From: a virus
Taxonomy: Duplodnaviria; Caudoviricetes
Direction: 5' to 3' (one strand)
IMG/VR virus record: IMGVR_UViG_3300032226_000526
Coordinates: 1 to 42,578 of that record
Length of the DNA stretch: 42,578 nucleotides
In this document: positions 3,110 through 19,004 of the stretch, piece after piece
How positions within the stretch are numbered: the stretch's first letter is position 1
Layout: the number at the start of each line of letters is the position of its first letter
The notes under the pieces: model-generated
What the model was told of the DNA's origin: nothing
What the model saw: the letters and a program-made list of their open reading frames with translations, nothing else
Databases searched by the model: none
Position numbers and translations under genes: made by a program

Positions 3110-3285
3110 TAGCAATAGGGTTTTTATTTGCATTGATATGTTTTTCTACATTACAGGAAGAATTTTCATTAGGCACATTCGGGTGGTTTATGGTGGGCGT
3201 CGTTATGATGCTACACAAACCAATTGGCGCAGTAATTTCAACATTATGGGGAGATCGCATTGAAAGAAAACGACATTCTAAGTGA
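3106..3285 (+). CDS. small membrane protein (59 aa, TTG start, not in ORF track)
   Basis: GGGGAGG SD, TTGA overlap; two hydrophobic segments (IAIGFLFALICF, GTFGWFMVGVVMML). Confidence 0.5.
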   Translation: MIAIGFLFALICFSTLQEEFSLGTFGWFMVGVVMMLHKPIGAVISTLWGDRIERKRHSK

Positions 3286-3832
3286 CTACCTGCAATCACT
3301 GTATGGCATCGAGCCGTTGACAGTTGAGGAAGAGCACGAGCTCGCCAAGAAGATTCAGGAAGGTGACGAGCGTGCGCTTGAGAAGTTAATCACGCACAAC
3401 CTGCGCTTTGTGGTCTACGTCGTACGTAAGATGACGGCGTGGAACCACGGCAAGGTACCAGTGGAGGATATGGTCGCCATGGGTAACGAGGCACTGCTTA
3501 CGGCAGGACGCAGGTGGGTGCCTAAGAACAACGCACGCTTTGCCACCTACGCCAAGACGTTTATTGAGAAGGGTGTACGGCGTGACCTAGACAACACGGC
3601 AAACATCATACGGCTACCGATTAACATCATGGAGCAAGTAAAGAAGTTGAACTACACCGAGCGCTCGCTATCCCAAGTACTAGGGCGTAAACCCAAGGTA
3701 AGCGAGATAGCCACGCTTATGAATGTCACAGAGGCCAAGGTGCACCAGTTGCAGGGGTATATCTCACGCGAGCCAATCTCACTTGACCACATCAACCAAG
3801 AGAAGTTTACCGAGGAGCACTTAGATGATTGA
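3260..3832 (+). CDS. RNA polymerase sigma70-family factor (regions 1.2, 2 and 3; no region 4)
   Basis: YLQSL..IEPLTVEEEHELA (r1.2); LITHNLRFVV, EDM..MGNEALL, RFATYA, IIRLP (r2); LGRKPKVSEIA..EPISLD (r3); stop follows soon after. Confidence 0.9.
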   Translation: MKENDILSDYLQSLYGIEPLTVEEEHELAKKIQEGDERALEKLITHNLRFVVYVVRKMTAWNHGKVPVEDMVAMGNEALLTAGRRWVPKNNARFATYAKTFIEKGVRRDLDNTANIIRLPINIMEQVKKLNYTERSLSQVLGRKPKVSEIATLMNVTEAKVHQLQGYISREPISLDHINQEKFTEEHLDD

Positions 3833-12367: not shown

Positions 12368-12667
12368 ATGACAGACTTAGAACTTATAGAGCTAATGAAC
12401 GGGATTGTCAAACTGGCCAGGCCAGTGAGTGCTGACGATCTAAAACTAGACAGTCTGGATGTGTTAATAAAAGATACCGGACTAGATAGCCTTGATTTTT
12501 TGATGGTTGGCGTATATCTATCCGACGTGTACGGTGTGTCTGAGGAGGTAATTAAAGAGATGAAGATGACACCGGAGAGCACCGTACGTGATTTTGTTAA
12601 GTACATGCAAGACAATAAAACCAAAGAGCCTGCCAGTGTAAAAGAAGCCTTAGAAAGTATTCAATGA
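12368..12667 (+). CDS. acyl carrier protein (ACP-like)
   Basis: Small acidic protein with DTGLDSLD phosphopantetheine-attachment motif, ..LSDVYGV.. and TVRDFVKYM; AAGGAG SD. Confidence 0.85.
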   Translation: MTDLELIELMNGIVKLARPVSADDLKLDSLDVLIKDTGLDSLDFLMVGVYLSDVYGVSEEVIKEMKMTPESTVRDFVKYMQDNKTKEPASVKEALESIQ

Positions 12668-13773
12668 GCATTTATTTAACAGACTACCGCACAGCGCACG
12701 CGACGCACGTTGACCTCTTTGATGAGATGGTGTACCCACAACGGGCCTATTGGTTTCCTGAGCTGTTTGCAAAGAAAGACACGGGATTGATCTACGTGCC
12801 ACACAAACTAGCTGAGAAAGTTTTAGATGCGCGATTACTAAAATCCCTCCGCGATAGAGCCGGTAAGACTGCGTTTATTTTTGCTTCCGGAAATGCGCAC
12901 CTTGCCGGCATCAATCCATACGCTATCAAGAAAAGTCGTTTGACCTATGACTACAAACTGTTACCGCTCACGTTAACACAGGTCTACGCGGGGCGTATTG
13001 CTCAGTCGTGTGGCGCGGATGATCTTGTAGTAACCGACGCCAGCGCCTGCGCGTCTAGCCTAAAAGCTATGTCTGACGTGTTCCAGATAATGACATACCA
13101 AGGGTTTGATAGAGTGTGCGTGCTAGGTGTAGAAGACACCATCAACGACAAGGTATTGCATTTCTTTGGTGAGTCGGGCGCGTGCTTGACTGCCGACAAA
13201 GAAGAGCAGGGCATCAAACCATCGGCGTTTGATAAACACAACGGCGGGTTTTATATTGGGCAGGGCGCCGTGTTTGCCGTGTTTGAATCAGAGCGCGTAG
13301 CACAGAACGCACAGGCCAGGTTGTTGGGCGCGGGTGTGGCGAGCGAAAGAAGTACCAACGCTATTGGCCAACGAGACGACGGTGAGGGGTTTGTTAGGGC
13401 CTCGGCGCTAGCATTAAAGAACAGTAACACAAGCCCAGGGGAGATCACAATTGTTAAAACGCATGGTACAGGGACTAAGTCAAATAACGTGTCTGAGAAG
13501 GCGGCTTTACAGGCGCTGTTTCATACGCCGTTTGTTGCGACGTCATTCAAGCAAATCATAGGGCACACAATGGGCGCCTCGGGTTTATTAGAGACCTGCC
13601 TGTTGTTAGATAGTCTAAAGTCTGGTGTAGTGCCAGCTATACCAAACAGGACCGAGAATGACACAGTATTTTTATCTGAACCCATAACAATAAAACGCAA
13701 GCCTAAGATTTTGAGTCAAGCGGCCGGCATGGGAAACATTTACGCATCAGCAATTTTTGATACCCAAGTATGA
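12664..13773 (+). CDS. beta-ketoacyl-ACP synthase (divergent FabB/FabF-like)
   Basis: Catalytic Cys in SACASSL, His in THGTGT..N, His in FKQIIGHTMGASG; GFYIGQGA; ATGA-coupled to ACP. Confidence 0.9.
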   Translation: MSIYLTDYRTAHATHVDLFDEMVYPQRAYWFPELFAKKDTGLIYVPHKLAEKVLDARLLKSLRDRAGKTAFIFASGNAHLAGINPYAIKKSRLTYDYKLLPLTLTQVYAGRIAQSCGADDLVVTDASACASSLKAMSDVFQIMTYQGFDRVCVLGVEDTINDKVLHFFGESGACLTADKEEQGIKPSAFDKHNGGFYIGQGAVFAVFESERVAQNAQARLLGAGVASERSTNAIGQRDDGEGFVRASALALKNSNTSPGEITIVKTHGTGTKSNNVSEKAALQALFHTPFVATSFKQIIGHTMGASGLLETCLLLDSLKSGVVPAIPNRTENDTVFLSEPITIKRKPKILSQAAGMGNIYASAIFDTQV

Positions 13774-15547: not shown

Positions 15548-15559
15548 TTTGCATTAGTA
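15548..15559 (+). promoter_or_regulatory. TTTGCATTAGTA motif with GGGCG 14 nt upstream
   Basis: Exact intergenic copy. Confidence 0.7.
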
Positions 15560-15632: not shown

Positions 15633-15890
15633 ATGAACCCATTTGAATTACGCTATGACTTACTCAAGACCTCCAAGGAGTTCTTAACCGAGCAGTATAA
15701 CGCTCAGCTAAAGGCCTGGGAAATAGCAGACGAGACAGGTAAAAAACTACTCGAGAAGGCCCCACAGTTCCCCAACATGCACGAGATCATTGACAACGCA
15801 ATCGAGATGAACAAGTTCATCAGCACCACGATCGAGGCACAATTGGTCGACGGCGTTAAGCGCTTTAACCGTATCACTGCAGTATTTTAG
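15633..15890 (+). CDS. conserved-looking phage hypothetical protein
   Basis: CA-rich leader plus AGGAG SD; MNPFELRYDLLK...P...EII..A..MNKFIS. Confidence 0.8.
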   Translation: MNPFELRYDLLKTSKEFLTEQYNAQLKAWEIADETGKKLLEKAPQFPNMHEIIDNAIEMNKFISTTIEAQLVDGVKRFNRITAVF

Positions 15891-15894
15891 TATT

Positions 15895-15941
15895 GGTTGC
15901 GACTTTTTTGAACCACTTTACAAAAAAGTCGCGACTTTTTT
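15895..15941 (+). terminator. long hairpin plus U tract (terminator or RNA processing element)
   Basis: GCGACTTTTTTG (15899-15910) pairs with CAAAAAAGTCGC (15921-15932), followed by GACTTTTTT. Confidence 0.55.
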
Positions 15942-15946
15942 ACAAT

Positions 15947-16027
15947 GGGGTAGGTAAAGTTTTGACGAGGGGCCAAGGCTAATATGCAACCCAGCGGACC
16001 ACGGGGCAGTACCGTGCTACTCCACCA
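15947..16027 (+). ncRNA. mini-tmRNA (tRNA-like domain only), Ala-type acceptor
   Basis: GGGGTAG/CTACTCC acceptor stem with G3-U70, A73 and encoded CCA; unpaired D-loop analogue ending TTTGAC; GGAC linker; T-arm CACGG-GGCAGTA-CCGTG. Confidence 0.75.
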
Positions 16028-16107
16028 ATTAATCATCGCGTCCATCGCTCTATACTTAACCTACCGGTTAGGTTTAGAGCTTTGGTGCATAACTTATGGA
16101 CTATTAT

Positions 16108-16263
16108 ATGGCAACTAAACCTGGCCTCTACGCCAACATTCAAAAAAAGCGTGAACGTATCAAGCAAGGATCCGGCGAAAAGATGCGCAAGCCCGGCACC
16201 GCTGGCGCCCCAACCAAGGACGCATTTATTCAGTCTGCAAAGACCGCTAAAAAACCAAAATAA
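16108..16263 (+). CDS. small basic phage protein (51 aa, not in ORF track)
   Basis: MATKPGLYANIQKKRERIKQGSGEKMRKPGTAGAPT..AF..SAKTAK, a recurrent phage peptide family; TAATG-coupled to the next gene. Confidence 0.75.
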   Translation: MATKPGLYANIQKKRERIKQGSGEKMRKPGTAGAPTKDAFIQSAKTAKKPK

Positions 16264-16655
16264 TGACAACTAAAAAAGCAAACCCGTCTAAGTACGACCC
16301 GGCCATGTGTGATCGCATGATCGAGCTTGGTAAGCTGGGCGCGTCACAAAAAATGATATGGTCTGACCTGAGCATATCAAAAGGCACCGCGGAGACTTGG
16401 AAGAAGAAGCACCCGGATTTTGCCGAGGCCTTGGACCTTTCCTTGGTCCACGCACAGGCGTACTGGGAACGTGAGCTACTGGCAAACGTCGACAACAAGG
16501 GATACAACAGCCGACTGGCCGAGATTGCGTTACGTGGCCAGTTCCAGCAAGACTACCGAGAGACGCGGGACACTAAAATAGAAGCGAAGATCGAAGCAAA
16601 GATCGACTTCCAAAAAGAGATAGCCGATTTGATTTCCGCCCTAAAGTCCCAATAA
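16263..16655 (+). CDS. terminase small subunit-like HTH protein
   Basis: PSKYDPAMCD..IELGKLG...ISKGTAETWKKKHPDFAEAL..A.AYWE pattern. Confidence 0.65.
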   Translation: MTTKKANPSKYDPAMCDRMIELGKLGASQKMIWSDLSISKGTAETWKKKHPDFAEALDLSLVHAQAYWERELLANVDNKGYNSRLAEIALRGQFQQDYRETRDTKIEAKIEAKIDFQKEIADLISALKSQ

Positions 16656-18420: not shown

Positions 18421-18465
18421 AGTAAAGGGTAGACGAACTGGCCCCTATTGAAGTCCAGTTCTACA
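18421..18465 (+). ncRNA. structured 5' leader (H-type pseudoknot candidate) of the SSB gene
   Basis: AGGG 18426-29 pairs with CCCT 18443-46, and GAACTGG 18435-41 with CCAGTTC 18455-61, interleaved. Confidence 0.5.
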
Positions 18466-18482
18466 GGTATAAAGGAATCAAA

Positions 18483-19004
18483 ATGGCTCAAGCCACTACT
18501 AAAGTAAAAGTTGTAACTGGTAAAGTGCGTTTCTCGTACGCGCACGTATTTCAACCCGCCTCCTCAATCGAGGGTGGTACACCAAAGTACTCTGTATCAA
18601 TCATTATCCCCAAGTCTGACAAGGACACCATTGCACGCCTCACAAAAGCATTTGAAGAGACCAAGGCCGCGGCGTCTGCATACTTCGGCGGCGCCGTACC
18701 TAAGAACTTAAAGGGTGGCCTGCGTGATGGCGATGCAGAGAAGGACGACCCAGCGTACGCAAACAGCTACTTCATCAACGCAAACTCGGCACAAAAGCCG
18801 GGCGTCGTAGATCAAGACCTTAACCCGATCATTGACAGCAGCGAGTTCTACAGCGGGTGCTATGGCCGCGCATCAATCACGTTCTACCCATACAATGCAC
18901 AAGGTTCTAAGGGTATTGCGTGCGGTTTAAATAACGTGCAGAAGTTAGAAGAAGGTGAGAAGTTAGGTGGTAGCACAACAGCAGCAGCCGACTTCGCAGT
19001 TTAA
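18483..19004 (+). CDS. DUF2815 family single-stranded DNA-binding protein
   Basis: VRFSYAHVF, KYSVSIIIPK, LRDGD, FYSGCYGRAS, GIACGLNNVQK, ..ADF C-terminus. Confidence 0.9.
   Translation: MAQATTKVKVVTGKVRFSYAHVFQPASSIEGGTPKYSVSIIIPKSDKDTIARLTKAFEETKAAASAYFGGAVPKNLKGGLRDGDAEKDDPAYANSYFINANSAQKPGVVDQDLNPIIDSSEFYSGCYGRASITFYPYNAQGSKGIACGLNNVQKLEEGEKLGGSTTAAADFAV

Follow-up and report, generated by a model that had tools for sequence, protein, structure and literature searches.

Tag-less tmRNAs, which retain nothing but the tRNA-like domain (TLD), have already been published from Mycobacterium phage DS6A and from plastids and mitochondria. The 2025 tmRNA database, as described in PMC11915505, counts 9 genes of the "standard, no CDS" kind in a total of 97,179, with DS6A named as the phage case. 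The DS6A gene (JN698994, 28478-28560) specifies a one-piece RNA of 83 nt (PMC4131195, PMC11915505). RNA of this type inhibits the endogenous tmRNA in E. coli, perhaps via SmpB titration (Mao 2009, cited in PMC11915505 and PMC4131195), and the inhibition is described as independent of alanine charging (PMC4131195). SmpB binds the TLD and protects tmRNA (PMC3929946, PMC2481249, PMC3895274), and according to accounts of earlier work the TLD and SmpB alone produce polyalanine in vitro in a template-free manner (Shimizu and Ueda 2006, cited in PMC3929946 and PMC2481249). In E. coli tmRNA, U17, G19, and A334 are reported to touch SmpB (PMC8363625).

The tag-less tmRNAs of jakobid mitochondria (RF02544; PMC3590771), also named in a preliminary description of the present locus, and of Mallomonadaceae plastids are described as having no coding region and retaining the alanine identity, and the gene of Jakoba libera as being in one piece and of alphaproteobacterial descent. 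The alphaproteobacterial two-piece tmRNA (RF01849, RF04321) has a GGCRGUA T-loop, AG in the D-loop, and a 5' P2a strand followed by an AAAG-type internal loop; its gene is circularly permuted and includes a tag frame. Full-length phage tmRNAs are also known (Melnitz, PMC9004378), and those of Melnitz, CcrBL9, and RpAliso are permuted and keep the tag frame. Neither a large phage class of TLD-only genes nor a phage form with the alphaproteobacterial elbow was found in the literature covered, which leaves most subscription journals outside its scope, and database supplements may list more phage cases. The alpha-elbow phage form and the size of the class are what the present analysis adds.

The window, which is the whole stretch of 42,578 nt analysed here, is a linear record of a freshwater phage and is 66% complete. 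Judged by comparison with its relatives, the segment 15947-16027 on the + strand is a genuine tmRNA TLD of 81 nt without a tag frame, as indicated by its sequence, its fold, its covariance model score, and the occurrence of the same 81-nt family in 33 IMG/VR stretches. The 5' strand of the acceptor stem (15947-15953) carries G3 of the G3-U70 alanine identity pair, and is followed by an unpaired D segment (15954-15965), in which AG (15958-15959) replaces GG and UUUGA matches the SmpB-contact region of tmRNA. On inspection of the sequence, the D segment was read as 13 nt terminating in UUUGAC, followed by P2a, and a GGAC connector precedes the 5-bp T-stem. A P2-like arm (15966-15996) sits where the tag-coding domain would be, and begins with the P2a helix (15966-15972 with 15990-15996) containing a tandem A-G/G-A. 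The GAC connector (15997-15999) contains the equivalent of E. coli A334, and the equivalents of U17 and G19 are also present. The T-arm (16000-16016) bears the alphaproteobacterial-type loop GGCAGUA (16005-16011). The 3' strand of the acceptor (16017-16027) consists of the pairing part (16017-16023, with U70 at 16021), the discriminator A (16024), and an encoded CCA (16025-16027). The preliminary description had named the acceptor, the G3-U70 pair, the D segment, P2a with its tandem G-A, the GGAC, and the T-loop, and all of them were found where it placed them on the + strand.

The RNA of the window shares with DS6A the G3-U70 pair, A73, a D segment ending in GAC, P2a, an A-rich internal loop, and a mini-hairpin, and both genes are intergenic, unannotated, and without a tag frame. 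P2 is closed on itself and the RNA is in one piece, as in DS6A. The two differ in the elbow and the 3' end: the elbow of DS6A is standard (GG, UUCGAUU) and its gene does not encode CCA, whereas the window has the alpha elbow (AG, GGCAGUA) and an encoded CCA. The P2 of the window's RNA is also weaker, and its host is likely alphaproteobacterial. The GGCRGUA T-loop and the D-loop AG are those of permuted alphaproteobacterial tmRNA (RF01849/RF04321). However, in contrast to the permuted order (3' half, intervening sequence, 5' half with coding piece), the 5' half lies upstream, and the one-piece gene is tag-less; the gap between its two halves is 29 nt. The features of standard tmRNA (RF00023), namely the mRNA-like domain, resume codon, tag frame, stop codon, and pseudoknots, are absent from the 81-mer. 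Organellar tag-less tmRNA is the only tmRNA of its organelle, whereas the phage RNA would be present alongside the host's own full tmRNA.

The minimum free energy fold of the 81-mer agrees with the proposed shape, with pair probabilities of 0.97-0.99 in the acceptor and T-stem and 0.53-0.57 in P2. Its folding energy does not differ from that of shuffled sequences (z -0.03), and the element is therefore not provable from a single sequence. Of the searches proposed in the preliminary description, ARAGORN found 0 genes in the window. Rfam at the gathering score gave no match to the element, and elsewhere in the window only the DUF2815 RNA, which lies at 18426-18485 (+) upstream of the gene for an ssDNA-binding protein. 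At low stringency, the 3' half alone was aligned by the alpha_tmRNA model (10.8 bits, E 0.35; far below 50), and neither RF00023 nor, at E<=10, RF02544 matched the element.

A strict pattern retrieved 33 stretches from IMG/VR, every one 81 nt long, comprising 6 distinct sequences including the window. A loose pattern, which imposes GAC and leaves pairing free at acceptor positions 5-6 and T-stem positions 1-3, retrieved 117 stretches (99 distinct) from 18 of the 64 IMG/VR parts, corresponding to an estimated total of about 430, and had 0 matches in 36.4 Mb of shuffled phage DNA. ARAGORN called one of the 99 distinct members a tRNA and none a tmRNA. All 7 acceptor and all 5 T-stem pairs form in 94 of 106 phage parses, compared with 10/113 GTDB matches (7/7 acceptor). 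Once parses were restricted to those with 7/7 acceptor pairs and no fewer than 4/5 T-stem pairs, 103 distinct phage sequences, drawn from a part of the collection, remained. Their length ranges from 64 to 88 nt (81-83 nt in 68), and CCA is encoded in 49; the connector is GGAC in 95 and AGAC in 8, its GAC being fixed by the pattern. A tRNA lies within 300 nt in 15/103 members, always on the same strand. A metagenome scan limited to the alpha elbow returned 60 stretches, with 42 parses, 40 of which were fully paired. Tag-less tmRNAs are not rare in uncultured phages; the rare phage examples mentioned in the preliminary description exist, as the papers on DS6A attest (PMC4131195, PMC11915505), but their rarity is not upheld by 103 distinct members and about 430 estimated.

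The GTDB scan, which served as a negative control, found 120 loci (113 distinct) that are by sequence almost all 3' ends of ordinary tmRNAs, and its estimate of 1800 is no count of the TLD-only class. The sole true TLD-only gene among these loci (L221:1998-2078, - strand; 66.2 bits) stands beside a tRNA in an Actinomycetota metagenome bin, perhaps in a prophage.

In BLASTn against cultured phages, the window's element had no match, with only short chance matches at E up to 10, and two other alpha-elbow members had none. The five cultured-phage matches examined comprise one TLD-only gene, three 3' halves of permuted full tmRNAs, and one attachment-site relic. The TLD-only gene is an unannotated one of Streptomyces phage LuckySocke (L503:491-571, + strand; 75.1 bits) within a tRNA cluster, and matches resembling it occur in GiJojo, Shaeky, Alone3, and pSt2308. 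The three full permuted tmRNAs (L500, L501, and L502) are likewise unannotated and belong to Caulobacter phage CcrBL9, Ruegeria phage RpAliso, and Pseudomonas phage SM1; the T-loop of the CcrBL9 tmRNA is UGCGAUU, of the Caulobacter type. RF00023 recovers 5 of 10 TLD loci tested, missing DS6A and all 3 loci with a GGC T-loop.

A covariance model was trained on 13 unrelated phage sequences with the window's family left out. It scores the window's element at 58.0 bits (E about 4e-13), with the runner-up site in the window at 13.5 bits, and matches 100/100 sources at 45.9-97.5 bits (training rows included). DS6A scores 63.5 bits. Among 80 GTDB control loci, the TLD-only gene mentioned above scores 66.2 bits, one other 49.1 bits, and the remainder <=41.7 bits. 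In the 100-row alignment, which was fitted to the model and whose rows had been selected beforehand by their acceptor and T-stems and not by P2a or P2b, 95.3% of cells are paired, compared with 67.8% after shuffling and 44.5-53.8% in slid registers, and two-sided changes occur at 17/23 pairs. Both strands of the acceptor covary across the class. The unfiltered stems are also paired across the class (P2a 91%, P2b 85%). This covariation, together with the score of DS6A in the same model, bears out the earlier suggestion of a tmRNA cut down to its TLD.

The middle of a typical class member runs from P2a through an asymmetric, A-rich loop to a 3-bp hairpin, as in DS6A, and two-sided changes were observed at all 3 pairs of this P2b equivalent. 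In the window's own family, P2b has only 2 bp, which are invariant, with a pair probability of 0.57. Because the middle is structured in the class and in DS6A, the 17-nt loop of the window's RNA is probably structured as well. Rather than the plain loop of the preliminary description, it is likely to form a 5+2-nt internal loop and, beyond it, a mini-hairpin like that of DS6A, in which 2 bp (15978-79/15986-87) close a loop of 6 nt. The loop was also considered as the vestige of a tag frame, in view of UAA/UGA variation and of a GCA with A at -4, and this was rejected: the GCA frame has no stop before the 3' end, and the loop is unconserved, with a resume-like motif in 26/103 members.

The alanine identity is almost never lost. 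With G3 fixed, replacing U70 by any other base in the pattern gave 5 stretches in the whole collection, versus about 430 estimated with U70 and A73; of these five, three are copies from a single degenerate family and two fold poorly, and all score <=29 bits. Replacing A73 by another base gave 0 matches in the whole collection, again with G3 fixed. The alanine identity of the phage class is under selection, and it is chiefly this that points to a role for charging. In three loci (L153, L154, and L157), a TLD-like fold combines G3-C70 with a G55 T-loop and lacks CCA; it represents a degenerate or non-alanine variant.

The usual elbow contact of tRNA is G18-U55. With the window's family counted once (98 rows), G55 in the T-loop is accompanied by AG in the D-loop in 18/18 rows, and U55 by GG in 74/80 rows (the remainder being 4 AG and 2 unassigned). 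These counts ignore kinship, and the D-loop site was chosen after trying several offsets; one fixed offset gives 12/18. The co-variation is consistent with an exchange of the G18-U55 contact for A-G. In a tree built without the elbow columns, which leaves too few columns, the alpha elbow needs 13 changes for 18 sequences, versus 16.8 when shuffled (2 of 500). The AG/GGCRGUA combination is the Rfam alpha consensus and is present in host genes too. Consistent with the preliminary description, which called GGCRGUA alpha-typical, the alpha T-arm pattern was found in 92/121 genomes of Alphaproteobacteria (the class of a Paracoccus genome; 91/120 without the unpublished genome G345), versus 0/301 of Burkholderiales (the order of an Aquabacterium genome), 0/61 of Actinomycetota, 0/61 of cyanobacteria, and 0/5 single genomes from other phyla.

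The T-loop had also been taken to hint at an alphaproteobacterial host, and two phage proteins agree with this. The best 15 cultured matches of the ribonucleotide reductase (64-66%) are all from phages of Alphaproteobacteria, and the best cultured matches of a virion protein are 62-kb Caulobacter phages (38%). On the other side, the best cultured matches of the DNA polymerase (33-36%) are phages of Ralstonia, Pseudomonas, Achromobacter, and Enterococcus, and RpAliso has a full tmRNA with a standard T-loop despite its alphaproteobacterial host, which counts against equating elbow with host. An alphaproteobacterial host is nevertheless likely for the window's phage. A beta-ketoacyl synthase gene (Pfam; 12368-13773, +) gives no host clue, its closest record being an uncultured spring phage; a 99-aa ORF ahead of it resembles acyl carrier protein by eye.

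The RNA gene is flanked by an 85-aa ORF (15633-15890), whose homologues have no informative names, and by small ORFs preceding the terminase small subunit (16263-16655). Among close relatives, in which the upstream ORF is at least 82% identical, the RNA gene is present in 33/47 (2 cut by contig ends) and absent from 14/47; it occurs in 0 of 33 more distant loci. Two relatives (L356 and L382) have the upstream hairpin and the downstream small ORF in common and differ by the RNA gene, which is therefore a discrete cassette. Other relatives have tRNA-Thr, -Ala, or -His before the same downstream gene, and one contig holds two loci with a tRNA-Thr 5 nt upstream. The RNA gene is thus an optional cassette in a slot that holds tRNAs in other relatives.

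A terminator-like 15-bp hairpin with a U6 run (15896-15941, +) closes the upstream gene and ends 5 nt before G1. It is not part of the cassette, because it also occurs in relatives without the RNA gene. Such hairpins lie upstream in just 10/103 members, 4 of which are the window's family, and are not general. The promoter-like motif TTTGCATTAGTA occurs 10 times in the window (+ strand: 4719, 8767, 12339, 15548, 16704, 18404, and 21073; - strand: 33820, 40142, and 40724), mostly immediately upstream of genes, and its nearest upstream copy (15548-15559, +) is a candidate source of a read-through precursor. The phage encodes a sigma-70-type factor (3260-3832). A sigma-70-like site at 15917-15946 was rejected as a promoter of the RNA gene, because its -10 box ends at G1 and transcription would begin inside the stem. 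Contigs from freshwater RNA libraries cover the gene in 6/6 runs examined (20 listed), 5 of which include a contig that spans the hairpin; these contigs come from close relatives, possibly include DNA, and do not make RNA ends visible. One of them (X9) stops at 16030, 3 nt beyond CCA, but the others continue, and its end is therefore no evidence of an RNA end.

We lean, with modest confidence, towards the view that the phage RNA is an alanine-charged, SmpB-binding competitor of the host tmRNA that lowers tagging. A read-through transcript would undergo an RNase P-type 5' cut in the manner of tRNA processing, the host AlaRS would alanylate the RNA, and the host SmpB and EF-Tu would bind it. The host is taken to supply SmpB because none was found in 5/5 related phage records searched, of which one bears the TLD and is 97% complete, and one is 100% complete without the RNA gene beside the upstream ORF. 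The RNA would then enter the A-site and transfer its alanine, perhaps repeatedly as poly-Ala, like the synthetic TLD in vitro. It and the full host tmRNA would compete over SmpB and over ribosomes that have stalled on broken mRNA, and alanine would be added without a proteolysis tag. As a result, ssrA tagging would fall, phage proteins would be spared in infection, and unprotected host tmRNA would possibly be lost; a benefit of reduced tagging to the phage is a presumed part of this proposal. The host would be alphaproteobacterial, with the elbow of the RNA matched to the host tmRNA. This reading is favoured by the architecture and model score in common with DS6A, by the inhibition and the polyalanine synthesis reported in the papers cited above, by the conserved alanine identity, by the pairing and two-sided changes across the class, by the joint variation of the two elbow sites, by the lack of SmpB in the related records, and by the RNA-library contigs over the gene. 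Inhibition of trans-translation, which the preliminary description had put forward, has its published precedent in the DS6A-type RNA. Counting against this reading, 14/47 close relatives manage without the gene, and a terminator-like hairpin lies 5 nt upstream. Moreover, the inhibition reported for DS6A-type RNA needs no charging, and so does not by itself explain the conserved G3-U70 and A73, whose conservation agrees no less well with rescue being useful.

With charging, SmpB binding, and A-site entry unchanged, the purpose may instead be ribosome recycling without tagging, as proposed for mitochondrial tag-less tmRNA, for instance where the single-stranded coding part of the host tmRNA falls to nucleases of host defence. 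This is the main rival, though we regard it as unlikely. The strict conservation of G3-U70 and A73 speaks for it, as do the jakobid tag-less tmRNA, described as thought to free stalled ribosomes (PMC3590771), and the tRNAs in the slot (-Thr, -Ala, and -His) and beside 15/103 members, which look like a translation-support kit. However, no frame with a stop codon is present, so chain release would require another factor; the sole in vivo precedent in the sources cited is inhibition, and a literature search for tmRNA cleavage during phage infection found none. A pure SmpB sponge or decoy, never active on the ribosome, whose tRNA-like features serve processing or stability or bait sensors of tmRNA or tRNA, is quite improbable in our view. 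Uncharged versions are reported to inhibit as well, and CoCoNuT defence systems have predicted SmpB-like tmRNA-binding domains according to PMC11090510; yet in a sponge G3-C70 or a different discriminator ought to be acceptable, and these are nearly absent (5 and 0 matches). For the decoy of tRNA-targeting defences put forward in the preliminary description, no support was found. The idea that the element is no stand-alone tmRNA at all (but an unusual tRNA-Ala, a permuted two-piece tmRNA's acceptor piece, or the relic of an integration site) is largely refuted and has very little probability left. It drew on a tRNA-Ala(UGC) in the same slot of one relative (L472), a UGC triplet in the window's arm, and the alignment of the 3' half with downstream sequence by the Rfam alpha model. 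However, the RNA has no D-stem or anticodon arm and does not form the cloverleaf of tRNA-Ala (RF00005), the UGC lacks an anticodon stem and U33, and ARAGORN calls a tRNA in 1/99 members. Within the window's 81-nt family, the DNA 3' of CCA is of two unrelated types, and a coding piece is therefore excluded. Both acceptor strands covary, unlike those of the 3'-only relic by the integrase of phage Shandong1 (15.9 bits), and a tyrosine integrase is absent from 5/5 related phage records.

With 103 distinct sequences and an alanine identity almost never lost, the tag-less tmRNA is a selected and recurring phage gene, and one that annotation tools overlook. The existence of a standard-elbow and an alpha-elbow form offers a ready-made swap experiment for host specificity; the unannotated copy in the cultured phage LuckySocke makes a knockout feasible. 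Whether the phage RNA acts by inhibition or by tag-free rescue, it bears on the role of tag-less tmRNAs in organelles. A broader and tentative proposal, which we consider somewhat unlikely, is that many phages carry a tag-free rescue RNA tuned to the host lineage, which with the host SmpB adds untemplated Ala or poly-Ala and overrides ssrA tagging. If true, phages would control protein quality control by an RNA route that has gone unrecognised, the RNA would be a model in bacterial cells for what the tag-less mitochondrial tmRNA does, and the alpha elbow would mark adaptation to the host SmpB or ribosome.

Two further features of the slot were noted. A 34-codon hydrophobic ORF (16014-16118, +) has GTG as its sole near start, which falls in the T-stem of the RNA and would be removed by RNA processing; alleles of this ORF elsewhere have their own ATG right after CCA. 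In more distant relatives (L397, L400, L406, and L411), the same slot, immediately 3' of the homologue of ORF 15633-15890, holds another stretch of about 120 nt, conserved but non-coding, which is possibly a structured RNA.
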